Origin: an uncultured Pseudomonadales bacterium
Lineage (GTDB): Bacteria; Patescibacteriota; Microgenomatia; UBA1400; UBA12108
Direction: 5' to 3'
Assembly (NCBI GenBank): GCA_964610445.1
Contig: CAZSVV010000003.1
Span: forward strand, 14,137 to 71,417
DNA length: 57,281 nt
Shown: piece by piece, positions 2-40,972 of the stretch
Position numbering within the stretch: the first letter of the stretch is position 1
Layout of the letters: each line of letters begins with the position of its first letter
The notes under the pieces: model-generated
What the model saw: only the letters and a program-made list of their open reading frames with translations
What the model was told of the DNA's origin: nothing
Databases searched by the model: none
Translations under genes and position numbers: made by a program

Positions 2-328
2 TATCTACCAGTTTGGATGGATGATTTTCCGACAACTTCGAGTGAGGACGGACTCACTCATACTACTACCGCGGTTAGAGGAAAAATAATTAGTACAGAT
101 CTCATACCAATTACAATTAAGACCGCCTACATGCCACATTGGAAGCTCACACTAAACGGCTATCCGACAGATATTATCCCAAACAAAGACGGTACTATCC
201 GTACTCATGCTGTGATCCCGCCAGGGGAGTACGAGGTAGAACTTACCTGGCACAAGACTAATCTCGAAAAAATAGGGGTAGTAATCAGTCTCTTCACCAT
301 ATTAATTGTGCTAGGATTAGCGCTATGA
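2..328 (+). CDS. 3' end of a polytopic membrane protein (YfhO/COG5617-like), 5'-truncated by the window edge
   Basis: The frame is open from nt 2 to the TGA at 326-328, so the listed ATG at 17 is probably internal. 'AYMPHWKLTLNGYP...PPGEYEVELTW' plus one terminal hydrophobic helix parallels the C-terminus of the 13023..14672 product ('YYPGWSVNMDKSKNIP...GVHEYEITM' plus terminal helix). Confidence 0.55.
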   Translation, partial: YLPVWMDDFPTTSSEDGLTHTTTAVRGKIISTDLIPITIKTAYMPHWKLTLNGYPTDIIPNKDGTIRTHAVIPPGEYEVELTWHKTNLEKIGVVISLFTILIVLGLAL

Positions 329-1782
329 AAGATGTCTTTACTACCGTCAAACAAAAAGCCCTCCGTGGGGTATTTACTCTAACTTTTCGTAGACTCCTAC
401 TCAAAGTAATAGATACGGTAGGTATTATTTATCTGGCTCGGCTACTCCCTCAAGAATCTTTTGGAGTCTTTGCCATTATCAGTTTTGTTGTCTTTACTTT
501 TCTCTCATTCTTCTCTGATGTTGGGCTCGGTGCCGCTCTTATCCAAAAAGAAAAAATCGAGGACGATGATCTCAAAACTACTTTTACTGTCCAGCAGATC
601 CTAGTCACAGTCCTGCTAGTAGTCGCTTTCTTTGCCGCCACGCCTCTAGCTAGTTTTTACAACTTGGGTAACGAAGGAATATGGCTGATCCGGATGCTTA
701 GCCTCTCACTCTTTATAACTTCTTTCAAAACAATACCTTCAATTCTACTAGAGCGTGATCTCCGCTTTGAGCTCTTAGTGATCCCTGAGGTCATCGAGAC
801 TGTGACCTACAATGTGGTCGCTGTAGTTATGGCTTCATCAGGCTACGGTGTCTGGAGTTTGGTCGTCGCAGTTGTTGCTCGTACACTCTTTGGCGCTATT
901 GCACTCTCCATTATCAAGCCCTGGCCGATCGGCTACCGACTAGCCAAAAATAGTATCCATGACCTGCTTCATTTTGGGGTGCCCTATCAGCTCAACTCAG
1001 TGCTCGCTCTCCTCAAAGACAATCTTGCTCCGACCGTGATCGCACTGTGGTATGGACCCGCTGCCGTTGCCTATGTTAACTTGGCCCAAAACATTAGTAG
1101 TCGGCCACTAGAGCTCTCAACCATCGTCTCCCGCATTACTTTCCCGACCTATTCTCGTATTCAGGGTGACACAGTTAGGCTTAAGAGCTGGATCGAAAAA
1201 TCTATCCATCTCATGGCCACACTTTACTTTCCCGCAATTATTGGACTCCTCGTAACCGCGGAGCCTATTCTTCGCTACCTCTATGCCGACAAAAGCGACA
1301 AGTGGCTCCCTGCCTTAACTACTCTCATCTTTTTCTTGCTCGCTGCCGTCCCAGTCTTTATTACGACGACCTATACCAATGCACTCTACGCGCTCGGTCG
1401 CCCCAAGGTAGTGCTACGCCTCATGGTTCTCTATACCATCCTCACCTGGGGCATTGGCGTGCCACTTATTAGATTGGTTGGCTATAGTGGTATAGCAATT
1501 ACTGTTGCCATTATCACTTACTTGACCATCCCATTAGTTGTCCACGAGATTAACAAGCTAGTGCGTCTCGATACCTGGGAGATGGTCAAGCGACCACTCC
1601 TTGCGAGCATTATCATGGGTGGCGCTACTTATCTGGGAGTGACTACATTTGTGTCTAGCCTACTGACGCTCGTTATAGCAATTCTATTGGGTGGACTACT
1701 CTACTGTGTACTTGTTTATGCACTCGATCACAAAATGCTTAAGGCCGAGCTGGTCAAAGTCTGGCATACTCTGAGACACTAG
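325..1782 (+). CDS. Wzx-like oligosaccharide/polysaccharide flippase (MOP superfamily)
   Basis: 485 aa and highly hydrophobic, with about 12-14 helices. The N-terminal region 'ARLLPQESFGVFAIISFVVFTFLSFFSDVGLGAALIQKE' is typical of Wzx/RfbX-type polysaccharide biosynthesis proteins. ATGA overlap with the upstream gene. Confidence 0.75.
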   Translation: MKDVFTTVKQKALRGVFTLTFRRLLLKVIDTVGIIYLARLLPQESFGVFAIISFVVFTFLSFFSDVGLGAALIQKEKIEDDDLKTTFTVQQILVTVLLVVAFFAATPLASFYNLGNEGIWLIRMLSLSLFITSFKTIPSILLERDLRFELLVIPEVIETVTYNVVAVVMASSGYGVWSLVVAVVARTLFGAIALSIIKPWPIGYRLAKNSIHDLLHFGVPYQLNSVLALLKDNLAPTVIALWYGPAAVAYVNLAQNISSRPLELSTIVSRITFPTYSRIQGDTVRLKSWIEKSIHLMATLYFPAIIGLLVTAEPILRYLYADKSDKWLPALTTLIFFLLAAVPVFITTTYTNALYALGRPKVVLRLMVLYTILTWGIGVPLIRLVGYSGIAITVAIITYLTIPLVVHEINKLVRLDTWEMVKRPLLASIIMGGATYLGVTTFVSSLLTLVIAILLGGLLYCVLVYALDHKMLKAELVKVWHTLRH

Positions 1783-9065: not shown

Positions 9066-10687
9066 TTATTAATTTTATTAAAAAACACTTCTTAATCCTG
9101 ACTCTTGCTCTGGCACTACTACTGCGCATCTTCAATCTCTCAACCAATCCGCCCGAGCTCAATTGGGACGAGGTTAGTATGGGCTACACCGCCTACTCAC
9201 TACTAGAGACTGGTCGAGACGAATGGGGTGAGCCATGGCCCATCCTCTTTCGCTCATACGGCGAATGGAAGTCACCAGTTTATATCTACCTACTCATCCC
9301 ATCGATCAAAATCTTTGGGCTTAACGAATGGGGAGTCAGGTTGCCAGCCGCACTCTTTGGGGTCCTGACCGTCTACTTGACCTACCTTCTCGCTACTCGA
9401 CTCTATTCTCGCCGGGTAGGGCTACTATCAGCAATGTTGCTTGCTGTCTCACCTTGGCATCTCATGCTCTCTAGACCGGCCTTCGAAGCAGGGGTAGCAC
9501 TTGCCTTAATACTAGCCGGCTTGCTATTTTTCTTAAAAAGTATCGAGAAAACTACTTTTAAACTTTACCCTTTATACTCAGCATTGCTACTCGGTTTATC
9601 CGTGCACACTTACCATAGTGCCAAGATTGTAGTTCCACTTTTAATTCTATTTTTAGGTTATGTATATCGCAAATACCTCTCACCCAAAACAATTCTATTA
9701 CCAGTTCTAATCCTCACTTTCTTTGCCTACCCGATTGCTCGTGACGTTGTAACTGGCAAGACTCAGGCTCGCTACAACCAGGTAGGGATCACGACCGATG
9801 CCGAGCTGACCGAGAGGTTCTTTAGATATAGGAACACCGCTCCCTTTGGTGAATTAGGTAACAAAATTGTTTTTAATAAATACACCTTTATACTCTCCAA
9901 GGGTTTCTCTAACTGGACATCCTATCTCTCACCACATTTTCTGCTCGGCTCTAGTAGTATTAGAGCGCAGCACAGTATTCCGTTTCGGGGTGTTTTATAT
10001 TTTGTTGAGTTTGCACTATTTATCTATGGCTTACTCTTGCTCAAAAATTATAAACATCCTTTGCGCTATCTCCCTGTTTTTGTCATTCTGGTGGGCTTTA
10101 TACCACCAGCTCTCACCAAAGATATCTATCATGTCTTGCGAAGTATACTGACTCTTCCTTGGTGGCAGGTGTTCGCCGCCATCGGACTCGTCGAATTAAT
10201 AAAGAACAAGTTCAAATATTTAAAATTGGTATATTGGTTATTGGTCATTGAAATAATCGCGTTTATCGCGATTTATTTCTTATGGTATCCAAAAGCCTTT
10301 GCCCGTGACTGGCAGTACGGTCACAAAGCTATAGCCGCATGGGTACAGGCTAACGAGAGTAAATACAAGCAGGTCTATATGACCAAAGCTTATGGTGAAC
10401 CCCAACTCTTCCTAGCTTTTTACAACAAATGGGATCCAACGTGGTATCAGTCGGAGAACAAAAAACTAATCGAATATGAGGCTCGTGGCTACCCTTGGCT
10501 TGACCAGCTACCAGAATATAGCCTAGGCAAATACACTTTTCGAGATATTAACTGGCCCGTTGATAACGGCAAGAACGAAATGGTCTTTATTGGCAAAGGA
10601 GACGATTTTTGGCTCGATACTCCCCATCCGCTAAGTATCAACTTCCCTGATGGTACCGCTGCTTTCCATATCTCAGAGGGTAAATAG
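9047..10687 (+). CDS. GT-C fold membrane glycosyltransferase, PMT-like (GT39-type)
   Basis: The first-loop signature 'LNWDEVSMGYTAYSLLETGRDEWGEPWP' is followed by 'VRLPAALFGVLTVYLTYLLA' and 'SPWHLMLSR'. The C-terminal domain contains 'YGEPQLFLAFYNKWDP'. It is a paralog of 15678.., 17471.. and 19275... Confidence 0.75.
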   Translation: MESLKVIINFIKKHFLILTLALALLLRIFNLSTNPPELNWDEVSMGYTAYSLLETGRDEWGEPWPILFRSYGEWKSPVYIYLLIPSIKIFGLNEWGVRLPAALFGVLTVYLTYLLATRLYSRRVGLLSAMLLAVSPWHLMLSRPAFEAGVALALILAGLLFFLKSIEKTTFKLYPLYSALLLGLSVHTYHSAKIVVPLLILFLGYVYRKYLSPKTILLPVLILTFFAYPIARDVVTGKTQARYNQVGITTDAELTERFFRYRNTAPFGELGNKIVFNKYTFILSKGFSNWTSYLSPHFLLGSSSIRAQHSIPFRGVLYFVEFALFIYGLLLLKNYKHPLRYLPVFVILVGFIPPALTKDIYHVLRSILTLPWWQVFAAIGLVELIKNKFKYLKLVYWLLVIEIIAFIAIYFLWYPKAFARDWQYGHKAIAAWVQANESKYKQVYMTKAYGEPQLFLAFYNKWDPTWYQSENKKLIEYEARGYPWLDQLPEYSLGKYTFRDINWPVDNGKNEMVFIGKGDDFWLDTPHPLSINFPDGTAAFHISEGK

Positions 10688-10688
10688 G

Positions 10689-12179
10689 ATGAATTATCTC
10701 CGTCTCTTTCTGTTATCCCTCGTAGGATGCATTTTTGTTGTTACTCTACCTTTTTACCGAAGTCATATTTTTGCAGTACATTTTGTAGATGAGGATGACA
10801 ATATTGTGATAGGCAATTATGTGAAAGAAGGCAAAAAGCTCTACACCGATATATTTTCACAACATCAACCCAGTATGTTTGTCGTATCTGCTGCACTGCA
10901 GGATTCTATATTCGTCAACAACGTTCAGATGCTAGTTCAGAGACATCGCGAACTAATGATTGGTTGGAGTATCTTGTGGATAATCTTCTTAGTAGCTAGA
11001 TTTGGATTTCCTCTTTTTATGACCACTAGCGTTCTCGAACTGTCAAAGATAACCTTACTAGGCAACCTCTTTCTGGCAGAAAGCTTAGTAGTCTACCCAC
11101 TCATCTATTTGTTAGCCCATTTCTTTCTGGCTCCCGCAACCACTCAGACGATTGAAAAAATATTCTTAACAACTGTTTTCTGGTTATTGTGGTATAGCTT
11201 AACTCCTCTCTGGCCAGTATTAACCCTATTACTTGTACTCTACGCTCACAAACATCAAGGAGATGTTGGCCTGTTCAGAATGCTAATCATTACCGGATTA
11301 ATATTCACTATTTGGCTAATGAACATCACCAATTTGAGTGACTATTTCGTTAGCGCGATCTACATAAACTATAAGTACTACATTCCACTAACAACACCAT
11401 TCGGATTTACAGAATCGATATACAAATCCTTATTTGCGCCCCTCTTTGCTTTGTTTTCAACCAAATCAGGTGAATTGCTAATGCTAATACGGTTGCTATC
11501 TCTCGGATTTCTAATCAATCTTCTATATCTGATCAAAGACAAAAATTATCTAAGGGTGATTTTTATCATCTCTATACTCTGGCTGACTTCTCTAAGATAC
11601 ATAGACCCAGCGGGATTATTGTATGGTGTGTTTCATATGCTTCCATGGTTTGCTGTTCTTATATTATTCTGTTTTATTAATGCCTCTACCCCAAAGATTA
11701 TTAACATAATAATGCTTGGCATCATTTCACTAGCTTCGCTGCAGGTAGCAAGAACTAACCTCTTTGACATTCGTGTTCCAGAGGATGATTATTATGTTAA
11801 CTTTTCACCTAAAGCAGATATCCGCGAGGCAGTAAAAATTATTTCCGAGTCGTCGCCACAGACAATCTGGGTCGAACCTGTTATGTATTATCCACATTGG
11901 AGGACTACTGCACAGCCGTATACCAAAATGGTCAATTACTATGGCTGGATGGATCAAACAGAGCCAATGAAGAGTGAACTTGATCACAACCTAGGCGTAG
12001 AGCTCCCGACGATTGTCTATGCAGAGACCAAACTTGGAATAGGTGCTTACATGGATCAATATACTCCGATAACACGAGAGGGGAAACCTAGCAGACTGTA
12101 CCTACGGATGGACCAAGTTGATAGGTTGAGCAGTGAGACTCGCGCACACCTGCTTTATTATAGATTTGAAATTAACTAA
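10689..12179 (+). CDS. Polytopic membrane protein, possible GT-C glycosyltransferase
   Basis: The ATG at 10689 lies 1 nt after the upstream stop, whereas the listed start at 10650 would overlap by 38 nt. The acidic loop 'HFVDEDDNIVIGNYVKEGKKLYTDIFSQHQP' follows TM1. There are many hydrophobic helices and a soluble C-terminus. Confidence 0.45.
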   Translation: MNYLRLFLLSLVGCIFVVTLPFYRSHIFAVHFVDEDDNIVIGNYVKEGKKLYTDIFSQHQPSMFVVSAALQDSIFVNNVQMLVQRHRELMIGWSILWIIFLVARFGFPLFMTTSVLELSKITLLGNLFLAESLVVYPLIYLLAHFFLAPATTQTIEKIFLTTVFWLLWYSLTPLWPVLTLLLVLYAHKHQGDVGLFRMLIITGLIFTIWLMNITNLSDYFVSAIYINYKYYIPLTTPFGFTESIYKSLFAPLFALFSTKSGELLMLIRLLSLGFLINLLYLIKDKNYLRVIFIISILWLTSLRYIDPAGLLYGVFHMLPWFAVLILFCFINASTPKIINIIMLGIISLASLQVARTNLFDIRVPEDDYYVNFSPKADIREAVKIISESSPQTIWVEPVMYYPHWRTTAQPYTKMVNYYGWMDQTEPMKSELDHNLGVELPTIVYAETKLGIGAYMDQYTPITREGKPSRLYLRMDQVDRLSSETRAHLLYYRFEIN

Positions 12180-12193
12180 GATATACTAAACAT

Positions 12194-13021
12194 ATGGAAA
12201 ATACTCATATCAGTCTCAGTGTCGCGTTAGCCGTCTATAACGAAGAGACATCTCTCGCTGAGTGTCTAGATTCGATCAAAGAGATCGCTACTGAGATAGT
12301 GATAGTTGATGGCAATTCTAGCGACAAAACAGTGGAGATCGCCGAGTCATATGGGGCTAAGGTTATCCATGAGTCCAATCGACAGAACTTTCATATCAAC
12401 AAACAGATTGCGATTGATGCCTGTACTAGTGACTGGGTACTGCAGTTAGACGCAGACGAGCGTGTTAGCTCCATGCTAGCCCACGAAATAAAACAGGTGA
12501 TATCTAAGGATTTATCCGCCGGAACATTAGCACAGGCGGATGCCTACTACCTCAAACGCCGCAATTACTTTCTAGGGCGTTTCATGAACAAAGGAGGCAT
12601 GTATCCTGACCCTGTAATCCGTTTATTCAAAAAGGGCAAGGCCAAGCTACCCCAAGCCAGTGTGCACGAAATCATGACGGTTGATGGCACGCTTGCTTGG
12701 CTACAAAATGATCTGATCCATATCGCTGATCCCACCTTTACTCGCTACCTACTACGTAGCAACCGGTATACCACCCTCACAGCACTAGACTATGCTAAGA
12801 GTGATATAGGGACGACCACTCCTATTATCCTCAATTATATGATCTTCAAGCCACTATTTCGTTTCCTCTCGATTTATATCCGCCACAAAGGTTTTCAGGA
12901 TGGATTTCCTGGTTTTATTTTTGCACTATACTCAGGGCTCCATATCGCTAGCTCATACGTCAAATACTGGGAAAAAAAGACAACTAATCAATCTACCACC
13001 ATGAAACATGATTGGAATTAG
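12194..13021 (+). CDS. Glycosyltransferase family 2 (same subgroup as 1799.. and 5002..)
   Basis: Motifs 'LSVALAVYNEE', 'VIVDGNSSDKT', 'LQLDADE', 'SNRYTTLTA' and 'GFQDGFPG' are present. Confidence 0.75.
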   Translation: MENTHISLSVALAVYNEETSLAECLDSIKEIATEIVIVDGNSSDKTVEIAESYGAKVIHESNRQNFHINKQIAIDACTSDWVLQLDADERVSSMLAHEIKQVISKDLSAGTLAQADAYYLKRRNYFLGRFMNKGGMYPDPVIRLFKKGKAKLPQASVHEIMTVDGTLAWLQNDLIHIADPTFTRYLLRSNRYTTLTALDYAKSDIGTTTPIILNYMIFKPLFRFLSIYIRHKGFQDGFPGFIFALYSGLHIASSYVKYWEKKTTNQSTTMKHDWN

Positions 13022-17470: not shown

Positions 17471-19273
17471 ATGAATATCATTAAAAAACTGATTACTCCA
17501 GTATTCTTTGTTTTTATCTCACTAATAATCATCTTCCCTCGTTTTTACCAGTTAGGTGACACTCCACACGGCCTTCATATCGATGAAGTTAGTTTTGCCG
17601 CCGACGCCAAATCACTAGCCGAAACTGGCAAAGACACTTGGGGTGTGACTATGCCTCGGGTTTTCAAAGCGTTTGGCGAGTATAAGGCTCCTGGACTTAC
17701 TTATAGTATGGCTTTCTGGGCCAAAATTACTGGAGTTATGAATAACTATGTCGCTCGACTCCCATCCGCAATTGCGGGCCTTACCATGATTGTAATGCTC
17801 GTACTAACACTCAAAACACTTGTACCCTCGATGAGTCCGGTTCTCTTGATGACTATAGCTCTGATTCTCGCATATAGTCCCTGGCATTTTGACATGTCTC
17901 GTATTTTTTATGAAGCATTTAGTGCTACTGCCTGGCTCTCTATCTCGATTTATTTCGCTACCAGAATATTATCATCAAACAAACACAATAAATATGACTG
18001 GCTCCTCATGCTCACGACTGCTTCTATTGCTGGTTACTATTACTCTTCTCTTCGTTACGTCATTATCATTTATGTATTAATAGTATCTTTCCTCTTAGAG
18101 ACTAAGTTCAAAGATATACTTAAGCGAAGTGTAGTAGCGATTATAGTAGTCACTTTGGTTGGTGTTGGATGGGTAAGCGACTTAATGTCTGATGTCGGCT
18201 TAAATCGACTCTACTACTACCAGCAAAAAGCCGATTTTGGATCCGCTCTAGAGATAGATGAGAAACGTCAGTTCTGTTACCTTGCCTTGAATCGTGATTC
18301 AGAATCAACTAGAGGATGTTATTTACTTTGGAATAAGCCCGTCTCCCGAATAACTGGAATGATAACTACCACTTTGACCTATCTTGGGACAGATTTTCTG
18401 TTTATAAAAGGTGTGAGTGAGTATGGATTTGATAGTCAGTATGGAGCTTTTTTACCACCACTTGTACTAGTTTACTTGATAGGCCTGTACTACGCTCTAA
18501 CTAGCTTAGTACGTTACTTGACCTCACAATTCAAGAAGAATAGTCGGCAATTAAATCGTGAAGATAAGGTATTTGTTCTATACCTAGGTCTAGCATTACT
18601 CTCACTAGTTCCCGCTGCAGTTGCAATGAATCTGAATATGAGAATGGCAATGGTTAGTCTGTATATAATCTCTATTTTGATTGGCTATGGACTTTATCAG
18701 TTTAACGAGTACCTAAAACGAACAGTAAAACCAATCATAAAAGTAATTGCTTATTGTTTACTCGGTGGGGCATTTCTATTTTACGCGATTCAATCAACTG
18801 TTCATTATTGGTTTGTATTTACCAAAAGCAATGACCTTCAGTGGACCTCTGACGCTGGGTCAATATTTGACTATGTTAAGAGTGTCTCAAAAAGTTATGA
18901 CCGCATAGTCGACACAGAGCTACATGGCCCGTTAGCCCCATACTTTTACGGAGATATTACAACTGATGAAGTTCATAAAGGTAGGTACAGTAATCCTGAC
19001 GCACTTGGCTTTACTTACCTAATAAAGGCTGGAAAATATGAACTTAACCACATCAATATCAAGGATCTTGCCTGCGAAGTGGTTAGTAAAAATGATAAGA
19101 GGAGAACGCTAGTAATAACTAATCCATATCCAGAACTCGTTTCAATGCGAAAATATGAATCAAGATCTTGGAACGGCGCCTTGCTGCTTCACGAGGTATA
19201 TGATCTATCTGATGTTATCTCATATATGGAGCGCTCCGAACCCAACTTTATGACTCGCTGTGGACCAAAATAA
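17471..19273 (+). CDS. GT-C fold membrane glycosyltransferase, PMT-like; second of the triplet
   Basis: 'LHIDEVSFAADAKSLAETGKDTWG', 'ARLPSAIAGL' and 'YSPWHFDMSR' are present. 600 aa and polytopic. Confidence 0.7.
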   Translation: MNIIKKLITPVFFVFISLIIIFPRFYQLGDTPHGLHIDEVSFAADAKSLAETGKDTWGVTMPRVFKAFGEYKAPGLTYSMAFWAKITGVMNNYVARLPSAIAGLTMIVMLVLTLKTLVPSMSPVLLMTIALILAYSPWHFDMSRIFYEAFSATAWLSISIYFATRILSSNKHNKYDWLLMLTTASIAGYYYSSLRYVIIIYVLIVSFLLETKFKDILKRSVVAIIVVTLVGVGWVSDLMSDVGLNRLYYYQQKADFGSALEIDEKRQFCYLALNRDSESTRGCYLLWNKPVSRITGMITTTLTYLGTDFLFIKGVSEYGFDSQYGAFLPPLVLVYLIGLYYALTSLVRYLTSQFKKNSRQLNREDKVFVLYLGLALLSLVPAAVAMNLNMRMAMVSLYIISILIGYGLYQFNEYLKRTVKPIIKVIAYCLLGGAFLFYAIQSTVHYWFVFTKSNDLQWTSDAGSIFDYVKSVSKSYDRIVDTELHGPLAPYFYGDITTDEVHKGRYSNPDALGFTYLIKAGKYELNHINIKDLACEVVSKNDKRRTLVITNPYPELVSMRKYESRSWNGALLLHEVYDLSDVISYMERSEPNFMTRCGPK

Positions 19274-19274
19274 T

Positions 19275-20900
19275 ATGTATAAATATATTCTAGTCGCAAT
19301 CTTGGCTACCTCTGCCTTGCTCCGGTTAACCTTCCTCAATTCTCATATGGACACGCTCTATGGCGACGAAGTAGCCCTGGGTTATAACGCGTATGCAATC
19401 AAAGAAACACTGCATGATGAATTTGGTCGCTTTATGCCGCTCCAGTTTGAGAGTTGGGGAGACCAAAAAAATCCAGTCTATATCTATGCAACAGCTCTAG
19501 TTCAGCTCATAACTGGCCCTACTATGGCGAGTGTTCGCATCCCCTCAGCCATAGCTGGGATTCTCGCAGTCTACCTGACTTACAGGCTAGCGATACTCCT
19601 CAAGCTCGGTAGTGTTGTTGCGCTGGTTTCGTCGTTCTTCTTAGCAGTTAATCCATGGCACATTCATATTAGTAGAGGTGGTTACGAAGCAAATGTTGCT
19701 CTAACTCTCGGCCTCGGCAGTGTAGTCCTGCTCCTAACTCAAAGGTATGCACTCTCCGCCTTGCTACTCGCGATCTCTACTTATACCTACTACACCACCA
19801 AAATGTTTGCCCCATTATTACTACTGTTTACCTGGATCTATATGATCAACTGGTCCAAGTACAAAAATAGTATCAAACCATTTATCAAATACTGGGTGAT
19901 AGCTCTTATACTCGTACTCCCCATAATTTATCTTGCCTTATTTAAGGGAGGACAGGTCCGTTTTCAGAGCATTAATATCTTTGTCGACAAGACAGTAACA
20001 CCTAGGGTGGAGAGAGCGCGCAACTTTTTTGATAACCCTGATAGCCTAGGAGCCAAGTTGAGCGAGAATCGATTTACCTATCATCTTAGCGATTTTGTCA
20101 TGTACTACTTAGAAAATTTTTCGGGACAATTCCTATTTGTGGGCGGGGATAGTAACGTCCGCTATGGGCTCGCTGGTCACGGCATGCTGTATCTCCTGGA
20201 CGCTCCACTGATCTTAATGGGACTAATCTTGCTCTACCAAAAAAATCGCCGGGCATGGTATTTCCTCTTTGCCTGGCTTATACTCGCCCCACTCCCAACC
20301 GCTCTTGTAGGTCGCGCCTACGGACTGCGTAGCCTAGCCATACTCCCGATCCCACAGATCCTGGCTGCCTACACGCTTTTTTCCTGGTATCAATCAACCA
20401 AAAAATCAAAAATTATTACAGCGTTCTATATACTATTTACAATCAGCTATATACTCAGTATTTCTAACTGGCTCCATCGCTACATATATCAGTATCCTGC
20501 CTATGGTCGCTACTGGTACGATGCTCCAATGCAAGATGCAGTGACTTACGCCAAGGAGAGAGAAGATAAATATGACCAGATTATCATCAGTCAGAGTTAT
20601 GGAGAGGTCTCGATGTATTATGCGTTCCTAAACAAGATCCACCCCGATATCTATCGACAGGCCAAAGCTAACAAAGTTGCTGTCGACGGCGTACCGATGG
20701 TCAAAATAGGCAAATACTACTTTGGCGATATCAGGCCAAAAGGGCCGATTGAAAAGATGGATATCCCACATAATACCTTGATCCTAGTTCAGCCGTATTT
20801 TGAATACGGCGAAGGAACAATCATTGCTCGTGATGATGGTAGACCTATCTATCGTGTTTTCGATTTTCCGACAGTCCACATGAAAGCCAAAGATCAATGA
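19275..20900 (+). CDS. GT-C fold membrane glycosyltransferase, PMT-like; third of the triplet
   Basis: The ATG at 19275 lies 1 nt after the upstream stop; the listed start at 19260 is an alternative. 'LYGDEVALGYNAYAIKETLHDEFG', 'VRIPSAIAGILAVYLTYRLA' and 'NPWHIHISR' are present. The C-terminal 'YGEVSMYYAFLNKIHP' matches the 9047.. paralog. Confidence 0.75.
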   Translation: MYKYILVAILATSALLRLTFLNSHMDTLYGDEVALGYNAYAIKETLHDEFGRFMPLQFESWGDQKNPVYIYATALVQLITGPTMASVRIPSAIAGILAVYLTYRLAILLKLGSVVALVSSFFLAVNPWHIHISRGGYEANVALTLGLGSVVLLLTQRYALSALLLAISTYTYYTTKMFAPLLLLFTWIYMINWSKYKNSIKPFIKYWVIALILVLPIIYLALFKGGQVRFQSINIFVDKTVTPRVERARNFFDNPDSLGAKLSENRFTYHLSDFVMYYLENFSGQFLFVGGDSNVRYGLAGHGMLYLLDAPLILMGLILLYQKNRRAWYFLFAWLILAPLPTALVGRAYGLRSLAILPIPQILAAYTLFSWYQSTKKSKIITAFYILFTISYILSISNWLHRYIYQYPAYGRYWYDAPMQDAVTYAKEREDKYDQIIISQSYGEVSMYYAFLNKIHPDIYRQAKANKVAVDGVPMVKIGKYYFGDIRPKGPIEKMDIPHNTLILVQPYFEYGEGTIIARDDGRPIYRVFDFPTVHMKAKDQ

Positions 20901-21553
20901 AGTTATACGTAGTAGTACCAGCATATAACGAATCAAGATTTATCGGTCGCTTTTTAGATAAATTAACTAAGAAAACTAAAAACATTCTTGTGATAGATGA
21001 CGGAAGTCGGGATCGTACAACAGATATTGTAAAGTCAAAAGGAATCAAAGTACTTACTCATATCACCAATCTGGGCAAGGGAGCTGCATTAAAGACTGGT
21101 TGTGAGTATGCGTTTAATAGACTTGGTGCTGATGGAGTAATCATTATGGATGGAGATGATCAGCACGACGTCTCAGATATCGCACAGTTTACCAAGACAC
21201 TGAGGGGAGGGGCGCAGATTGTTTTAGGAGTTAGAGCGATGGATAGTCGGATGCCCCTGACCCGGTTACTAGGCAACAGATTTACTTCTGTTTTAATCAA
21301 CGTTCTTTTTGGCCGTTACATCTCTGATGTTCCAAGTGGTTTTAAAGCTATGACTAAGAGTGCTTACAAAAAGCTCTTATGGCATAGTAGCGGTTATGAG
21401 GTCGAGACAGAAATTGCCGTAAGAATCGCAAAAAGTAAAATAAAATACGTCGAGATTCCAATCAACACTATCTATCATGGCAAAGAATATGGATTTAACC
21501 TGATCGATGCCATCCGTATTATAATAAAGATACCTTACTGGATATGGAGTTAA
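20897..21553 (+). CDS. Polyprenyl-phosphate sugar synthase-type GT2 (DPM1/Ppm1/GtrB-like catalytic domain)
   Basis: Motifs 'VVVPAYNESRFI', 'VIDDGSRDRT', 'NLGKGAALKTG', 'IIMDGDDQHD' and 'VLGVR' are present. It is only 218 aa and has no C-terminal TM helices. ATGA overlap with the last GT-C of the triplet. Confidence 0.75.
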   Translation: MKLYVVVPAYNESRFIGRFLDKLTKKTKNILVIDDGSRDRTTDIVKSKGIKVLTHITNLGKGAALKTGCEYAFNRLGADGVIIMDGDDQHDVSDIAQFTKTLRGGAQIVLGVRAMDSRMPLTRLLGNRFTSVLINVLFGRYISDVPSGFKAMTKSAYKKLLWHSSGYEVETEIAVRIAKSKIKYVEIPINTIYHGKEYGFNLIDAIRIIIKIPYWIWS

Positions 21554-21558
21554 ATAAT

Positions 21559-21879
21559 ATGATTGGAATACAACTTTTTTCGGTAGTGTTTATCTTCATT
21601 ATGCTCTACGTAGTTCGCATTCATTACAAAAAGCAAGAACTACCAAAAGTAGAAGCTCTGTTTTGGAGCATAGTCCTACTATCTCTAGCTACTATCGTAA
21701 TAGTACCTGGTAGTGCTGACGCAGTTAGAAACCTTTTTCAGGTATCTCGACTGCTCGACGTAATCATGATAATTGCCTTTATGGGTACCTTTATATTCTT
21801 AATAGAGAATCGAATTCAGATTAGCAAGCTCCGTTCCAAACTAGAAGTCTTGACTCGAGAGCAAGCTATGAACGATTAG
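21559..21879 (+). CDS. Small (about 106 aa) three-helix membrane protein, DUF2304-like
   Basis: A GGAG lies 8 nt upstream of the ATG at 21559; the listed start at 21544 is an alternative. Three hydrophobic helices are followed by an amphipathic tail 'ISKLRSKLEVLTREQ'. DUF2304-type proteins typically follow DPM1-like GT2 genes. Confidence 0.45.
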   Translation: MIGIQLFSVVFIFIMLYVVRIHYKKQELPKVEALFWSIVLLSLATIVIVPGSADAVRNLFQVSRLLDVIMIIAFMGTFIFLIENRIQISKLRSKLEVLTREQAMND

Positions 21880-21880
21880 T

Positions 21881-22657
21881 ATGAAGTTACCAAAAATTTC
21901 AGTCGTTACCCCTAGCTATAATCAGGCCAAGTACATAAGAGCTACAATTGACAGCATCCTCTCCCAGGATTATCCCAATCTCGAATATATCGTAATGGAT
22001 GGTGGTAGTACTGACGATACCGTCGAGATTCTCAAGAGCTATGGTAACAAAATACAATGGGAGAGTAAAAAAGATAATGGACAGACACACGCAATTAACA
22101 AAGGGTTCCGTCTAGCAACAGGCCAAGTACTCGCATACCTCAACTCCGACGATGTATATCTCCCAGGCACACTCAGAGCAGTAGGGGAGTATTACGCCAA
22201 GTCGAAAGCCGATTGGATTACAGGCGACTGCATAGTGATTGATGAAAACGGTAATCCTAGTCGTAGTAACTGGCTAATCTCTGGATATAAGCGTCTGCTT
22301 ATGAAGTTATACAGTCGAACCACACTTATGATTGCCGATTCCATGTTGCCTCAACCATCAACTTTCTGGTCCCGCGACGCTGCTAATGTTGTAGGGGAGT
22401 TTAACGAAAAATATCACTACGTCATGGACTACGACTACTGGCTAAGATTATCTAAGCATTATAGACCCCACGATCTCAAGGTAGCACTCTCTGGTTTTCG
22501 TGCCCAACCAGACAGTAAGAGCGAAACTAGTCGTCCAAAGTTGATGGCAGAGGGTGAACTGGCGTTAGTTGCGAATGGGGCCGAGACCTGGCATCTCATG
22601 CTCCATCGTGCACATTCGGCGGTTGTACGCCTCATCTATAATATTCTTAAGCAGTGA
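21881..22657 (+). CDS. Glycosyltransferase family 2
   Basis: Motifs 'ISVVTPSYNQAKYI', 'IVMDGGSTDDT' and 'AYLNSDD' are present. Confidence 0.8.
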   Translation: MKLPKISVVTPSYNQAKYIRATIDSILSQDYPNLEYIVMDGGSTDDTVEILKSYGNKIQWESKKDNGQTHAINKGFRLATGQVLAYLNSDDVYLPGTLRAVGEYYAKSKADWITGDCIVIDENGNPSRSNWLISGYKRLLMKLYSRTTLMIADSMLPQPSTFWSRDAANVVGEFNEKYHYVMDYDYWLRLSKHYRPHDLKVALSGFRAQPDSKSETSRPKLMAEGELALVANGAETWHLMLHRAHSAVVRLIYNILKQ

Positions 22658-22680: not shown

Positions 22681-24060
22681 ATGAAATTAAATAAATTAGC
22701 ATTCATCGTAAGTTTAGTACTTTGTATAACTTTTGCATTAGCGGGTACATTTATATCAGTTAATCGATTTTATCAATTTGATTCTTTCTACTATGATTTT
22801 GGTATATTTGATCAAGCGATTTGGCGAGTTTCACAACTTAGAGCACCAGTAATCGATCATTATGTCGTTGGTGGATCATGGATATTTGGGGATCATTTTA
22901 GCCCAGCATTAATGTTGCTCGCACCCATATATTGGATTACACATGCTCAAGAGGCGATATTCTTTGTTCAAGCTGCATTTGCCGCCCTAGCCGGGTTTAT
23001 CTTGTATAAGACCTCATACGCACTGACCAAGAATAGTTATGTCTCAATCTCAGTTCAAATAGCTTTTTATCTCTTTACCGGACTACAAAACGCCGTGATT
23101 ACAGATATCCATGAGTTAACATTCGCGACTCTCCCCCTCTCGATAGTGCTATATTCGCTCGTCACGCTTAACAAGCGTATGTACATATTTTCATCTCTCT
23201 TTCTACTCCTATTCAAAGAATCAACATTTCTAGTTATTTGTGGCATTCATTTCTATACATGGTTAAAAGTAAAAGAATGGCGAAATGTGACGATTATTCT
23301 TTCAACGCTTAGTATTATTTATGCATACAGCATAATATCCTACGTAATCCCTGCTTTTTCAAACTACTATCAGTATAACTTTTTGGCAGGTCATACCGTG
23401 CAGAGTGCCGTAAGCGCTCTCTATGACCATCCCATCAAGATAAAAACACTTGTCGACAGTTTCACAAGCTTCTCTTTTACTGCGATATTTACACCATCAC
23501 TCTGGCCGACGTACTTAGTTCATTATTGGACACGGTTTTTATCTTCGGCTGGCTCGCGTTGGGAAATTGGGCTTCACTACAATGCTGAGATTGCCCCGAT
23601 TTACGCTTTCTCCCTGATGCTAGTCTTAGATAAATTAACTAAACATAAAAAGACGATAACTCAGTTAGTGATAGTTTTTGTTGTTACTACCTTTGCACTC
23701 TATCAGAATTATGCTCGGCTAAAAATGCCATTCTTAATGGCCATTAATCCTGCGCTCTACCTTGCATCAGATCGAACAATCGAAATACGACAATATCTTA
23801 AGCAAATGCCAGCAGATCCAGTAATTATGGCACCAAATCATCTTGCAGCCCACCTCTCACACAAAAACGTGCGACTCGCTCGCGATAAGTATAGCGATTA
23901 CGATCCAGAATATATAATTTTTGATACTAATCCAGATCAAAATGCCAACAACTGGTATGGTTTAAAGGACAAAGATCAGTTTATGAAGAATGTATCTGCA
24001 GATTTTGATTATAAGCTGATACAATCAATATCTAGCTACCTAGTATACAAGAAGAATTAA
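22681..24060 (+). CDS. DUF2079-like polytopic membrane protein (putative GT-C-type)
   Basis: The signature-like loop '[13 protein letters not shown]' follows TM1. 459 aa with many helices and a short soluble C-terminus. Confidence 0.6.
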
Positions 24061-24062
24061 CT

Positions 24063-25007
24063 ATGTCTCAAGAATATTGGGCAAATAAGCGCGTAGTAGT
24101 CACTGGTGGAGCAGGATTTCTCGGATCTAATGTAGTTAAACAACTAGAGGCACTCAGTGTGAAGGATATTGTGATACCACGCTCTAGCACCGATGACCTA
24201 CGATCACAAGAGACTTGTGCCAAGGTGGTAGCTGGAGCAGACATAGTTATTCACCTGGCAGCTAACGTAGGAGGTATTGGATACAACCGAGATTTTCCTG
24301 GGACACTCTTTTACGATAACTTGCTCATGGGTGTACACATGATGGAAGAGAGTAGGAAGGCTGGGGTTAAAAAGTTTGTAGCCATAGGAACGATTTGCGC
24401 CTACCCAAAATTTGCCCCAATCCCTTTTAAAGAACAAGATCTTTGGGATGGATATCCAGAAGAAACTAACGCGCCATATGGCCTAGCCAAAAAGATGATG
24501 CTAGTCCAGAGTACTGCATATAGGGACCAGTACGACTTTAATAGTATCTTTCTATTACCAGTCAACTTATATGGACCTGGAGACAACTTTGAGCCAGGAA
24601 GTAGCCACGTTATCCCAGCTCTTATAAAAAAATTTGTAGAAGCAAAGCAAAATGGATCTAATAGTGTCGAAGTATGGGGAGATGGTTCTGCTACCAGAGA
24701 ATTTTGTTATGTAGATGACGCGGCAAGAGGCATTATTCTCGCGAGCGAAAAGTATGACAAAAGTGAGCCAGTAAATATTGGTGCTGGATTTGAAATATCG
24801 ATACATGATCTCGCAAACAAAATAAAGGAATTAACCGCTTTCAGTGGTCAAATCATTTGGGATAAAGATAAACCCAACGGACAGCCTAGGCGGATGCTTG
24901 ATGTGTCGCGTGCAACACTCGAATTTGGTTTTGCTGCAAACACCACCTTTGATGAAGGACTATCAAAAACAGTAAGTTGGTATATCAATAATTCCTCAAA
25001 TATATGA
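24063..25007 (+). CDS. fcl: GDP-L-fucose synthase (GDP-4-keto-6-deoxy-D-mannose 3,5-epimerase/4-reductase)
   Basis: Motifs '[13 protein letters not shown]', '[12 protein letters not shown]', '[14 protein letters not shown]', '[10 protein letters not shown]', 'NLYGPGDNF', '[11 protein letters not shown]' and '[16 protein letters not shown]' are present. Confidence 0.85.
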
Positions 25008-25957
25008 ACTGGTATAGGCATTACATTGGACTATATCTGAGCGTTTTTTCAGTTTTGATGGCTGCCATAGAAACATATAAGTATCCTGGATTTATATTTA
25101 AGCACTTCAATTTTTTACCAATGATCTTTTATGTAATAACTGGGGTTGCAATAATTGCGATCAAACTATATCCTCCGCCAACTCCAGAGAAATCTCTTCT
25201 CGCAATAATGTTCAGATTGCTCGCTATATATTCCATCATTTTGACCGGCATATTTTATATTATCGAAACAATAACTTACCCTAATTTCATTTTTACTTAC
25301 CTACATGTCCACCTAGATGGTTTGCAAATCCTGACAGGCATGCTTTTTGTATACTTTGCCTTATCAAACCTTATGCATAGACATTATGTCGCTATTCTAA
25401 ACAGCACTTTTCTTCTAGCTATATCATCACTCTTAATAAACTACACAATAATAAACTCGATTGATGTGGCCAAATTAGTTAAAAAAGAGGTCAAGGCCAT
25501 GCAGATACCCGCAATAAACGATGAAGAAAAAAATGAAGCAGGGTGGGGGACGATCTACCGGTATGCGCAAATGTTAAAACAAGCCACTCCAGAGGATGCA
25601 GTCATCGCGATGCCACCAGCTCAAAATCACTGGTTATACTCTGGCAACATTGTGTTAATGCGTTACTTTTTGTATCCACGGACGCTGACCAACGTCAAAG
25701 AAACTGCTGACACTTCTACTCTGACAGAACTACCCAACCAAGATTATGACTACATCGCTCTCGTTTGGGGTGAGTCTAATGAGCGCGACACTTCTCCTTA
25801 TGGCTGGCCAAAGACTAGTATTAATGCTGAGTATATCGAATATTTTGATCTGAGTAGTAATACTTCCAAACGTGTAGATAGCGCAGAATACATCCCAGCG
25901 TATTTAAATGAGCCTTTATGGGGGGTGATTAAGTTTAAAAAAGAGGAGTCTCAATGA
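25004..25957 (+). CDS. Membrane protein of unknown function (about 5 N-terminal TM helices plus a 150-aa soluble C-domain)
   Basis: Hydrophobicity pattern only. The C-domain segment '[29 protein letters not shown]' resembles the C-terminal domains of the PMT-like GT-Cs in this window. ATGA overlaps at both ends. Confidence 0.55.
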
Positions 25958-27249
25958 TGCTCATCTTAATCACACTACTCGTTGTGTTGGGAGGATTGAT
26001 ACTCGGCCGATACTTATACCCAGCCGCAAATACTCTAATTTCTATAAGTGTAGGTATTCTCCTAGGGATTGGGCTATATATTATCGCAATGTACTTGCTC
26101 GGAGTGATGGGTATTGCGTGGACCCAGCTGGCCTTAATCATCTTGGCAATAACATTCTTTGGCGCATCATTAACACTAATGAAGTCAATCACTAGACCAT
26201 CCAAAGCTCCAAACCAACTATTGGGGATCTTAGTAGTCTTACTTTTTGCTTTTTTCTCGGTCGTTGTTAACTCGTACTGGCCGGTCCGAGACTGGGACGC
26301 TCTAACTCTCTATGATTTTAGAGCCAAAGTTTTTTCTGAAAACAAGGCGATTACAGGGATCTTTACTCCTGAGCTCAATTACTATTTAGCTTACCCGTTC
26401 TTCACATCATTAATTCATACGGTGTCATATATCTTCGATTATGGGAGGCCAGCAATCTACTACAGCTTAGTTTATACAGCACTCGGTCTATTTATCTACG
26501 GCTTTTTGAGTCAAAAAGTATCCAAAGTATTGTCTATTCTCTTTACCATCTTGGTGCTGATTAGTGGTGACATCTTTAACCACTCCTTCATTTCTTATAC
26601 CAACCTTACTTATACTACATACTTTGTAGTCGGGATACTTATATTTTCAGAAGGGATAGCAACTAAAAAATCTAAGTTATTAATCTTGGGATCTACCTTA
26701 ATCGGGGTTATGCAGCATGTTAGGTATGATGACCCGTTTTGGGTCATCCCAATGCTTATCTCATTCTTGATATTCGTCAAGACTAAAAACTACAAACCAT
26801 TACTTATTTCTACTCTCATTATTTTTCTCTTTAGAATACTTTGGTCTGGATACAAAAACACCTTGATGAGCGAGTATGCAACAGTTGGGTCAATGCCGTA
26901 TCCCCAGTTATTCGAAACACTTATATCTACTAACCCAGTGCAAAGAGTCATTGAAGTCTCAACTTTTTTATATAAATCGTTGTGGCTAAAATACGGAATC
27001 CTGATTTACATATTTGTATTTTCTGTTTTGATCTCATGGAGAAAAAAATCAGAACTCCTTCGCCTAAGCCAACTCACTACATTTCTCATCCTTGCCATTC
27101 TTTATCTTGGAACTATAGCGATGAGTTATTTATACGCAAAGTGGAACGTGGTAGGTGGGTCAGTTGCACGCATGATGATGATCATAATTCCCACATCATT
27201 AGTCTCAGCTTGTCTAGCGCTCGGAGAATATTTTAATGAAAAAAAGTAA
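25954..27249 (+). CDS. Polytopic membrane protein, possible GT-C-type
   Basis: 431 aa and almost entirely hydrophobic helices. It has the acidic loop 'YWPVRDWDALTLYDFRAKVF'. Confidence 0.5.
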   Translation: MMLILITLLVVLGGLILGRYLYPAANTLISISVGILLGIGLYIIAMYLLGVMGIAWTQLALIILAITFFGASLTLMKSITRPSKAPNQLLGILVVLLFAFFSVVVNSYWPVRDWDALTLYDFRAKVFSENKAITGIFTPELNYYLAYPFFTSLIHTVSYIFDYGRPAIYYSLVYTALGLFIYGFLSQKVSKVLSILFTILVLISGDIFNHSFISYTNLTYTTYFVVGILIFSEGIATKKSKLLILGSTLIGVMQHVRYDDPFWVIPMLISFLIFVKTKNYKPLLISTLIIFLFRILWSGYKNTLMSEYATVGSMPYPQLFETLISTNPVQRVIEVSTFLYKSLWLKYGILIYIFVFSVLISWRKKSELLRLSQLTTFLILAILYLGTIAMSYLYAKWNVVGGSVARMMMIIIPTSLVSACLALGEYFNEKK

Positions 27250-39328: not shown

Positions 39329-39346
39329 TATCTAAAAAGATATAGT

Positions 39347-39694: not shown

Positions 39695-40972
39695 ATGTTC
39701 TCTAATATCTCTAAGCTCACAAAATCTAGCGGTCTAAAATCAGCAGCACTCATGACTGTCGGCAACGTAGGCTCGACAGGCATTGCTGCCGTTGCCATGA
39801 TTATCTTTTCTAGACAACTTGGTCCAGAACAATTTGGTATCTTCTCAGTGCTCTTTTCACTCATGCTAATAATCTCTCGTATTGGAGATATGGGCATCAA
39901 CATTGCTGTCTCTCGCGCTATTGCCCAAAATCAGAATAATAAAACCCTCAACCTAGCCTTTGCTCAAAACGGAGCTTTTCTAAAAGCAATTATTATGGCA
40001 TTGGTGGTAATTACTGGCATGATCACTACTCCGTTGATCACAGAGACTCTGCTTACTCTAACTCCAGATTTTGTCCCTATGGTGCGAGCAGTCATGCTCC
40101 TTTCGATCTCTGTAGTTGTCTACGAATACGTCAACTCTCTTCTTCAGGCCAGACAGTATTTTGGCCTCTCGGTCTTGACTAATACTGTTCAATCTTCTCT
40201 CAAGCTGCTCTTGGCACTAGCTACGCTAGTATTTGTAGGTATAAACCTAAGTACTGTCACCCTAGGGTACATGATCTTGCCACTTATCGGAGCTTGCGTT
40301 GGTTTTTTTGCGATCAATGTAAGGGAGCTCTTGCCTATTTATAGTCCAAAAATCACAAAATCGTTAATTAATGTGGCTCGATGGACCAGTATCTCGATTC
40401 TTGCTAGTGCAGTCGCAGAGAATGTCGACGTTTTAATAGTCCAAAAGTATCTCTCAGTCCATGAGACGGGACTATATGCTGCCGCAACTAGGATTGCGAC
40501 TGTTACTTCACTCATTGGCTGGTCGCTCGGTACAGTATTGAACATGCGGGTAGCAAAATATAAAGACAAAGTGAACTTGGATCGCTATCTAAAAAAAGGC
40601 ATCATGCTAGCAATCGTTTCTCTCTTAGCGACTGCCGCACTCTGTTTGATATCTTATCCAGTCGTTACGTACACTATCGGACCAGCCTACCTGAGCGTCG
40701 TCCCTACATTAAATATTCTCTTAATATCTACCGCGTTCTTAACAGCTACTACACCGTTTGTTGCTTTGTTTTATGTCTTTGATTACCCGCGATATTTTGC
40801 AGTCTCTGGGATTATAACTGCTCTTAGCTTACTTATCTCAGATATTGTCTTGGTACCTACCTACGGGTTAATCGGTGCAGGGTGGGCGAGGGTGATTACT
40901 AGGCTGGTAGTCGGTATCTATACTGTATATATTGCTTATTCCTTATACCACAAGACTTATGGCAAAAAGTAA
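39695..40972 (+). CDS. Second Wzx-like flippase (MOP superfamily)
   Basis: 425 aa with about 12 helices. The N-terminus 'GSTGIAAVAMIIFSRQLGPEQFGIFSVLFSLMLIISRIGDMGINIAVSRAIAQ' is typical of polysaccharide biosynthesis (Wzx) proteins. Confidence 0.7.
   Translation: MFSNISKLTKSSGLKSAALMTVGNVGSTGIAAVAMIIFSRQLGPEQFGIFSVLFSLMLIISRIGDMGINIAVSRAIAQNQNNKTLNLAFAQNGAFLKAIIMALVVITGMITTPLITETLLTLTPDFVPMVRAVMLLSISVVVYEYVNSLLQARQYFGLSVLTNTVQSSLKLLLALATLVFVGINLSTVTLGYMILPLIGACVGFFAINVRELLPIYSPKITKSLINVARWTSISILASAVAENVDVLIVQKYLSVHETGLYAAATRIATVTSLIGWSLGTVLNMRVAKYKDKVNLDRYLKKGIMLAIVSLLATAALCLISYPVVTYTIGPAYLSVVPTLNILLISTAFLTATTPFVALFYVFDYPRYFAVSGIITALSLLISDIVLVPTYGLIGAGWARVITRLVVGIYTVYIAYSLYHKTYGKK

Follow-up and report, generated by a model that had tools for sequence, protein, structure and literature searches.

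A GT2–DUF2304 gene pair of a Microgenomates bacterium as a probable two-protein polyprenyl-monophosphate sugar synthase

A 57-kb stretch of DNA (hereafter the window), which is part of a 71-kb contig (C3) and has its first base at contig position 14137, comes from an uncultured bacterium of the Microgenomates (CPR) and encodes a series of putative GT-C glycosyltransferases. As a possible source of lipid-linked sugar for these, the initial annotation had pointed to a single family 2 glycosyltransferase (GT2) and to the small membrane protein encoded directly after it. The analysis described below indicates that these two genes very probably encode a two-protein polyprenyl-monophosphate sugar synthase of the GacI/GacJ type (equivalently, the PpgS/Rv3632 type). 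The pair therefore belongs to a kind of enzyme that has already been characterised, and represents neither a new system nor a new mechanism. The assignment gives names to two genes for which public records offer no more than the labels "glycosyltransferase family 2" and "DUF2304", in a host lineage whose cell-surface glycosylation is unstudied.

The candidate catalytic subunit is a GT2 of 218 residues (20897..21553, + strand), whose start ATG shares an ATGA with the stop codon of the upstream GT-C gene (19260..20900). The protein matched PF00535 (E 1.1e-23), and its translation contains the motifs PAYNE (residues 8-12), DDGSRDRT (34-41), GKGAALKTG (60-68) and MDGDDQHD (84-91). Its closest sequence match in the PDB was DPMS (5mlz, E 1.6e-10, residues 1-190), followed by ArnC and GtrB, with the DGDDQH segment aligned to DADLQH of DPMS. 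The AlphaFold2 (AF2) model of the protein (pLDDT 88, pTM 0.86) likewise retrieved ArnC, GtrB and DPMS as the top Foldseek matches (TMq 0.72-0.79, E ~1e-11). Moreover, a D-x-P-S-G-F segment that starts at D144 was invariant across 45 orthologues. Both its sequence and its predicted structure place the protein among the polyprenyl-phosphate glycosyltransferases, as a GT-A/GT2 enzyme that carries a DxD motif.

GtrB, CsbB, ArnC and the archaeal DPMS share the catalytic fold and the juxtamembrane helices of this GT2. The anchored enzymes, however, carry C-terminal transmembrane (TM) helices of their own (GtrB and ArnC have two, and DPMS has a GtrA-like domain of four helices), whereas the enzyme described here has none and is accompanied by a separate protein instead. 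No TM segment was detected in a 19-residue hydropathy scan (no segment reached 1.6), and the C-terminal end of the model forms an amphipathic helix (residues 202-217; mean H 0.53, muH 0.53) and not a TM hairpin. An anchored synthase of the GtrB/CsbB/ArnC type was ruled out, owing to the lack of C-terminal TM helices in the same polypeptide. Among the NCBIfam models, the best matches were AglJ (E 9.5e-32; 110.5 bits versus a cut-off of 325) and PpgS (E 6.7e-31, positions 3-217 of 226 in the model; 107.5 bits versus a cut-off of 370 for the equivalog NF058614). With a score so far below its cut-off, the protein is related to PpgS without being its orthologue, and the GalNAc specificity of the latter is therefore not transferable by annotation.

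The second gene (21559..21879, + strand) encodes a three-helix membrane protein of 106 residues, which belongs to the DUF2304 family of GacJ, Rv3632, EpaJ and WpsB (PF10066, E 3e-16, 60 bits versus a cut-off of 25.5). No match to PF04138 (GtrA) was obtained for this ORF, which has three TM helices and not the four of GtrA. The three hydrophobic helices were apparent both in the hydropathy scan and in the AF2 model (pLDDT 86; helices at residues 2-24, 30-48, 52-60 and 64-105). Residues Q5, W36, R64, D67, F78 and R100 were invariant among 38 homologues; unlike the pattern of the GacJ family, the DUF2304 proteins of the Microgenomates clade lack the family-typical G[VI]GRGAD motif but retain its invariant R and D. 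The ATG at 21559 is probably the true start, since a GGAG is located 9 nt before it and the orthologues are 106-107 residues long with starts beyond the GT2 stop. This start leaves a gap of 5 nt between the two genes, while the alternative start at 21544 would yield a protein of 111 residues and an overlap of 10 nt.

DUF2304 proteins were found in 81 of the 301 genomes of the phylum. A GT2 of this type was located directly upstream of the DUF2304 gene, on the same strand, in 28 of 30 loci and in 73 of 77 further loci, which, being drawn from a single phylum (Patescibacteria) and picked by similarity, do not constitute independent cases. The wider survey of loci yielded Patescibacteria only, and the occurrence of the pairing in other phyla is therefore taken from the literature. 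In the close relatives, to which the same restriction applies, the two genes were adjacent in all six loci examined, as part of a constant trio (GT2 of 218-221 residues, DUF2304, GT2 of 257-266 residues) flanked by variable genes; the gene upstream of the pair also differed among these relatives. The third member of the trio is here a soluble GT2 of 258 residues (21881..22657, + strand; PF00535, E 9e-31), which begins 1 nt past the DUF2304 stop and has its best NCBIfam matches among the TuaG, EpsE and PglI types. Elsewhere in the Patescibacteria, the DUF2304 gene was followed by one for a soluble GT4 or GT2 in 64 of the 77 loci (18 of 30 in the first set), and none of the 77 had a GT-C homologue within 3 kb of the pair. 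Natural GT2-DUF2304 fusions were sought with joined GT2 and DUF2304 sequences as queries, the matches being scored over the DUF2304 portion, and none was found. The frequency of the pair in the phylum and its stereotyped cassettes offer a starting point for studies of surface composition in CPR bacteria. The description in the initial annotation was thus borne out in several respects: a DPM1-like GT2 of 218 residues at 20897, with all four of its motifs and lacking C-terminal TM helices, a downstream three-helix protein of about 106 residues for which the HMM search favoured DUF2304 over GtrA, and a conserved pairing of the two genes, the absence of which the annotation had named as grounds for refutation.

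A similar arrangement is found in GacI/GacJ of Streptococcus pyogenes (together with the Wzx protein GacK and the GT-C enzyme GacL) and in EpaI/EpaJ of Enterococcus faecalis, in which a TM-less GT2 of ~220-230 residues is likewise followed by a three-helix DUF2304 protein of ~110 residues; the likeness to GacI/GacJ is drawn here through PF10066 and the published description of GacJ, and not by direct alignment. GacJ, itself a DUF2304 protein, is catalytically inactive alone, but it co-purifies with GacI, and its presence brings the apparent Km for Und-P down from 18.7 to 1.1 µM (bioRxiv 10.1101/180810). The product of GacI/GacJ is a polyprenyl-monophosphate sugar, and the same product is proposed for the present pair. 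The streptococcal system also comprises a candidate Wzx-type flippase and a GT-C user, and genes of both kinds are present in the window. The sugar of that system is GlcNAc and its host a Firmicute, whereas the present host is a CPR bacterium, which lacks a rhamnan backbone cluster.

In Mycobacterium tuberculosis, similarly, the synthase PpgS (Rv3631), whose HMM matched the GT2 over its full length, is stimulated by a small membrane protein encoded downstream (Rv3632; PMC3485146), the GT-C enzyme of the system being Rv3779; a small membrane protein is encoded downstream of the synthase here as well. Natural fusions of synthase and partner have been described, as has the stimulation of PpgS by Rv3632 (bioRxiv 10.1101/180810). 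By analogy with these systems, the DUF2304 protein is a probable activating and anchoring subunit of the synthase, and the earlier view of it as a membrane partner is in agreement with what has been published for GacJ and Rv3632. Across pairs of this type, EpaI/EpaJ and WpsA/WpsB included, the small protein binds and stimulates its synthase and is not known to be a flippase. WpsA/WpsB of Lactococcus lactis (WpsB being a DUF2304 protein) and AglJ of Haloferax volcanii belong to the same class of synthases; no DUF2304 partner is known for AglJ. In both of these systems, cytosolic GT2 enzymes lengthen the lipid-phosphate sugar before it is flipped, a feature to which the constant downstream GT2 would correspond here. 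EpaI/EpaJ and WpsA/WpsB, the latter priming on Und-P, are treated together in PMC8327497.

From these precedents, and in line with a reviewed scheme of a cytoplasmic GT-A enzyme, a separate TM protein, a Wzx protein and then a GT-C enzyme (PMC8035078), we infer the following sequence of events. The 218-residue GT-A enzyme would be held at the cytoplasmic face of the membrane by its amphipathic helices, where it would load polyprenyl phosphate with a single sugar taken from a nucleotide donor, probably UDP-hexose or UDP-HexNAc, with DGDDQH as the putative site for the metal and the diphosphate. The translationally coupled DUF2304 protein would serve as the integral-membrane partner, which, by analogy with GacJ and Rv3632, would bind the synthase and raise the efficiency with which the lipid carrier is used. 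A separate flippase would then carry the lipid-linked sugar across the membrane, the candidates being the two Wzx/MOP-type proteins of the window: one, a GacK/WpsG analogue, has ~11 TM segments (325..1782, + strand; PF13440 E 9.5e-61, PF01943 E 4e-23), and the other is encoded at 39695..40972 (+ strand; PF01943 E 1.2e-21, PF13440 E 3e-11). Outside the membrane, one or a few GT-C enzymes would use the sugar, possibly after the addition of a second sugar by the 258-residue GT2. A candidate user is the PMT_2-type GT-C enzyme of 546 residues (19260..20900, + strand; PF13231 and PF02366), whose gene is translationally coupled to that of the synthase.

Six ORFs of the window passed the Pfam cut-off for PMT_2 (3585, 9047, 17471, 19260, 43657 and 51519). 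The GT-C enzyme at 19260 is a paralogue of those at 9047, 17471 and 15678, and ORFs 6803 and 15678 were added to the GT-C set by paralogy. Downstream of the trio, a GT-C-like polytopic membrane protein of 459 residues (22681..24060, + strand) matched DUF2079 (PF09852, E 3.7e-39), a family which we take to belong to the GT-C clan of Pfam. Neither a within-genome jackhmmer search nor Pfam (E up to 5) assigned the polytopic ORFs 10650, 33877, 35464, 25954 and 25004 to the GT-C enzymes; the same was true of ORF 13008 itself, an orthologue of which carries PTPS_related. Judged by sequence, the window thus contains 9-10 supported GT-C genes. Of the approximately 15 proposed in the initial annotation, the remaining four or five received no assignment, such that 15 stands as an upper bound.

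Within the window, the 218-residue enzyme is the sole GT2 that belongs to the polyprenyl-phosphate class. All other GT2 proteins matched the ArnC, PpgS and AglJ models with their N-terminal nucleotide-binding half only, and a clear gap in phmmer scores separated them from members of the class. The GT2 paralogues 1799, 4969 and 12194, located upstream of GT-C genes, were rejected as hidden lipid-sugar synthases, their solved relatives being GmaR and SunS and their matches confined to the N-terminal half. Three further candidates were detected on C3 itself, at distances of 4-13.5 kb before the window begins, all of them full-length relatives of ArnC, DPMS or GtrB and each followed directly by a GT-C-like gene (C3:592-1755, C3:7355-8077 and C3:9564-10319). 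The first of these, a GT2 with a GtrA_DPMS_TM domain, is a DPMS-type enzyme 12 kb upstream of the window; the only PF04138 match of the genome (C3:1348-1743) is outside the window, in which the initial annotation had correctly recognised no GtrA-family gene, and a GtrA gene that stands alone is absent from the genome. A fourth candidate, an AglJ-like fragment, is located where contig C9 ends.

These additional enzymes bear directly on the proposal that the locus depends on this pair alone for lipid-sugar synthesis and that the pair feeds most of the ~15 GT-C enzymes. The singularity of the GT2 within the window and the phmmer score gap are consistent with such a role, and GttA in Listeria provides a precedent in which one synthase serves two GT-C enzymes (PMC8035078). 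The three synthases upstream, each with its own GT-C-like neighbour, the fragment on C9 and the lack of neighbouring GT-C genes beside the pair in other genomes argue against it, and we regard it as very unlikely. It is largely refuted by the upstream synthases, an outcome that the initial annotation had itself named as contrary to its single-synthase reading, and that reading is an artefact of the edge of the window. The genome encodes at least four such synthases, the pair included, and the pair does not act as a hub for the locus as a whole; instead of a single donor synthase shared by many GT-C enzymes, the locus has several synthase/GT-C modules in a row. Nor did the other suggestion, that the DUF2304 protein replaces GtrA as a flippase (scramblase) for the polyprenyl-phosphate sugar, hold up. 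A small multi-helix membrane protein that is always encoded beside the synthase, with invariant polar residues (Q5, R64 and D67) in or near the membrane, in a genome that lacks a stand-alone GtrA gene, would suit this function, and some DUF2304-positive genomes have no GtrA-domain match (e.g., G005, G011, G046 and G070); GtrA domains are, however, so common (241 of the 301 genomes) that their co-occurrence with DUF2304 is uninformative. The protein shows no similarity to GtrA; a fold search with its model gave no match better than E 2 and no transporter among the matches, an outcome that is neutral as to an anchoring or a flippase role. Moreover, GacJ acts on the Km for Und-P shown by GacI, and the side chain of S. 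pyogenes requires a separate Wzx gene, gacK, whose product is the proposed flippase (bioRxiv 10.1101/180810). Two Wzx genes are present in the window, and the literature cited here reports no flipping assay for DUF2304 proteins. A flippase role is thus extremely improbable.

A further alternative, which leaves the GacI/GacJ-type identity of the pair untouched, deals with what becomes of the product, namely that the polyprenyl-phosphate sugar is the primer of a lipid-linked oligosaccharide and not a monosaccharide donor. The primer would be extended by the 258-residue GT2 and perhaps by other cytosolic glycosyltransferases, flipped by a Wzx protein, and transferred or polymerised by a GT-C or Wzy-type enzyme. 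The constancy of the trio amid variable flanks in the close relatives implies that the lipid-linked sugar may be extended before export. The GT4 or GT2 genes that follow DUF2304 in the other Patescibacteria, together with the lack of nearby GT-C homologues there, point in the same direction, as do AglJ as the top NCBIfam match, the precedents of WpsA/WpsB in Lactococcus and AglJ/AglG in Haloferax, and the presence in the window of the Wzx genes, a Wzy_C protein (49857-51518) and numerous cytosolic glycosyltransferases. Adjacent glycosyltransferase genes are, however, common in glycan clusters and do not prove a shared product; phosphoglycosyl-transferase primers are encoded elsewhere in the genome (a Bac_transf protein on contig C23 and two MraY/WecA-family genes), and the translational coupling of the pair to a PMT-type GT-C gene fits a monosaccharide donor. 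We consider extension possible but somewhat doubtful. A more specific and frankly speculative version, which we hold to be unlikely, is that the Microgenomates trio builds a polyprenyl-monophosphate-linked di- or oligosaccharide that is moved en bloc by PMT-like GT-C enzymes, with R64 and D67 of the DUF2304 protein helping to bind the lipid phosphate. Such a pathway, if true, would be widespread in CPR bacteria and would parallel, on the bacterial side, the dolichol-phosphate pathway of AglJ/AglG in archaea.

An SDR gene was located directly upstream of the pair in 67 of the 77 loci from other Patescibacteria; the SDR of these cassettes matched none of the curated equivalogs. An SDR/epimerase is also encoded in the vicinity of both the mycobacterial pair (Rv3634c) and the present one (GalE, 36630-37601).

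The pair of genes lies in a tightly packed region of the window, in which the plus strand carries every large ORF except that at 47600-48214. The glycosyltransferase family 2 (GT2) protein of 218 aa (20897-21553, plus strand; PF00535, E 1.1e-23) is preceded by a PMT_2-type GT-C gene (19260-20900), whose stop codon overlaps the GT2 start as ATGA. It is followed on the same strand by a small ORF encoding a DUF2304 protein (PF10066, E 3e-16, 60 bits versus a cut-off of 25.5), and a second GT2 gene (21881-22657) starts 1 nt past the DUF2304 stop. ORF calling placed the start of the small ORF at 21544, with a 10-nt overlap with the GT2. The start at ATG 21559, which yields the 106 aa of the initial annotation (21559-21879), appears the likelier, since GGAG is located 9 nt 5' of this ATG and the orthologues are 106-107 aa in length and begin past the GT2 stop.

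The initial observation is confirmed, and all four GT2 motifs quoted in the initial annotation were found in the translation. The best solved relative of the GT2 is the Pyrococcus dolichol-phosphate mannose synthase (DPMS; 5mlz, E 1.6e-10, residues 1-190), with ArnC and GtrB next. The top NCBIfam models were AglJ (E 9.5e-32) and PpgS (E 6.7e-31, 3-217 of 226 positions), with scores well under both equivalog cut-offs. In an AlphaFold2 model built from 45 orthologues (pLDDT 88, pTM 0.86), the top Foldseek matches were again ArnC, GtrB and DPMS (TMq 0.72-0.79). Judged by sequence and modelled fold, the protein is a predicted enzyme of the polyprenyl-phosphate class. No TM segment was found in a hydropathy scan of the GT2; the model contains two long helices (121-138 and 202-217), of which the second, at the C-terminus, has amphipathic character (mean hydrophobicity 0.53, moment 0.53). 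This combination is compatible with a monotopic enzyme at the membrane surface.

The DUF2304 protein contains three hydrophobic helices. Its model (pLDDT 86) comprises helices 2-24, 30-48 and 52-60, together with one 42-residue helix (64-105) that runs from the third TM into a charged tail. In a gap-free alignment of 38 homologues, Q5, W36, R64, D67, F78 and R100 were invariant. All six are kept in the Microgenomates-clade proteins (the window copy and loci L033, L034 and L119-L121), which carry V[ST]RL[LT]D instead of the G[VI]GRGAD usual in the family. No GtrA match in Pfam, no sequence relative in the PDB and no fold match for the model were found.

A two-gene pair of this kind is already described and is not new. 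In S. pyogenes, GacI makes GlcNAc-P-undecaprenol, and GacJ, a DUF2304 protein with 113 aa and three helices whose gene lies just 3' of that for GacI, co-purifies with GacI; GacJ alone is inactive, and in its presence the apparent Km for Und-P falls from 18.7 to 1.1 uM (Rush et al., bioRxiv 10.1101/180810). Genes of the GacI/GacJ type are frequently neighbours or fused, and Rv3632, the M. tuberculosis homologue of GacJ, stimulates PpgS (bioRxiv 10.1101/180810; for Rv3632 likewise PMC3485146). The pair type was extended to EpaI/EpaJ of Enterococcus and WpsA/WpsB of Lactococcus (PMC8327497).

Across the phylum, DUF2304 proteins above the cut-off occurred in 81 of 301 sampled genomes, each of them small (0.7-2 Mb). 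In 28 of the 30 best DUF2304 loci, a similar GT2 (E 1e-20 to 1e-48) immediately precedes the DUF2304 gene on the same strand, and such a GT2 occurs within 150 nt upstream in 73 of 77 further loci (those with sufficient upstream sequence among 80 from named Patescibacteria MAGs), although these counts are not independent, because the loci were chosen by similarity within a single phylum. The GT2 has many close orthologues, of which the best 120 listed share 63-100% identity and are almost all exactly 218 aa, their named sources being mainly Microgenomates, Woesebacteria and Collierbacteria. The initial annotation had offered two roles for the small protein, and the partner or anchor role is the part judged right. 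Its alternative, that DUF2304 acts as a missing flippase, is unsupported; two Wzx-type genes, of the flippase type proposed for GacK and WpsG, are present in the window.

The initial annotation further envisaged a single synthase as the hub of the locus. This is true of the visible sequence, since no second GT2 of the polyprenyl-phosphate class was found inside the window, but it fails for the contig and the genome. The 71-kb contig, of which the window covers bases 14137-71417, belongs to a genome of 842 kb that is 84% complete, and three further candidates lie on it upstream of the window (contig coordinates): a 387-aa protein (592-1755) with GT2 and GtrA_DPMS_TM, a GtrA-like four-helix domain, in the archaeal DPMS architecture; a TM-less 240-aa protein (7355-8077) that matches ArnC (E 1e-14) and DPMS (E 4e-10) over the full length; and a 251-aa protein (9564-10319), for which GtrB (E 9e-11) is the best relative of solved structure. 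A polytopic GT-C-like gene comes directly after each of the three. All three lack a DUF2304 partner, the only DUF2304 copy in the genome being that beside the 218-aa GT2. A fourth candidate, on another contig (C9:26338-26748), is an AglJ-like GT2 fragment (E 1.3e-28 over 126 residues) truncated by the contig end, beyond which any downstream partner would lie outside the assembly. A series of consecutive synthase/GT-C modules is the better description of the locus. Three paralogous GT2s in the window (1799-2701, 4969-5772 and 12194-13021) are also located upstream of GT-C-like genes; they were rejected as lipid-sugar synthases, their closest solved relatives being the protein O-/S-glycosyltransferases GmaR and SunS, and the copy at 4969 is now below the Pfam GT2 threshold.

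The proposed number of about 15 GT-Cs holds as an upper bound. Direct sequence support was obtained for nine ORFs (six above the PMT_2 cut-off, one DUF2079 and two via paralogy), and ORF 13008 was added through the PTPS_related match of its orthologue. Five more polytopic membrane ORFs (10650-12179, 33877-35457, 35464-36597 and two in 25004-27249) matched no Pfam family even with E values of up to 5 allowed, and they stay unassigned. A paralogue of ORF 35464 (contig 1761-2828) immediately follows the DPMS-type synthase.

Beside a simple monosaccharide-donor role, a primer role for the pair, as for WpsA/B or AglJ, is plausible by analogy because of the gene contexts in relatives. The six loci of close relatives all share a constant trio, the GT2, DUF2304 and a soluble GT2 of 257-266 aa, while the genes flanking this trio differ. 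In the Patescibacteria loci (L039-L118) the cassette runs from an extended-SDR enzyme through a PpgS-like GT2 and DUF2304 to a GT4, or to a GT2 and then a GT4, with the SDR upstream in 67 and a soluble glycosyltransferase downstream in 64 of 77 loci; no homologues of the window's GT-C genes were found within 3 kb of the cassette in these 77. The cassette SDR gave no curated equivalog match. Phosphoglycosyl-transferase primers are present elsewhere in the genome.

The 71-kb contig as a whole is a glycosylation island. ORF 36630-37601 scores above the GalE equivalog cut-off (297.8 versus 262.3 bits), and 24063-25007 is GDP-fucose-synthase-like, under its cut-off (281 versus 500 bits). Midway through the glycan locus is a toxin-antitoxin pair (38999-39649), made up of a Gp49/HigB-like toxin gene (PF05973) and, after it, an XRE-type HTH gene (PF01381). 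A 148-aa ORF with a Bro-N domain is convergent and overlapping with the 204-aa minus-strand ORF, which has no family match, and this region (47208-48214) may be a small foreign insert.
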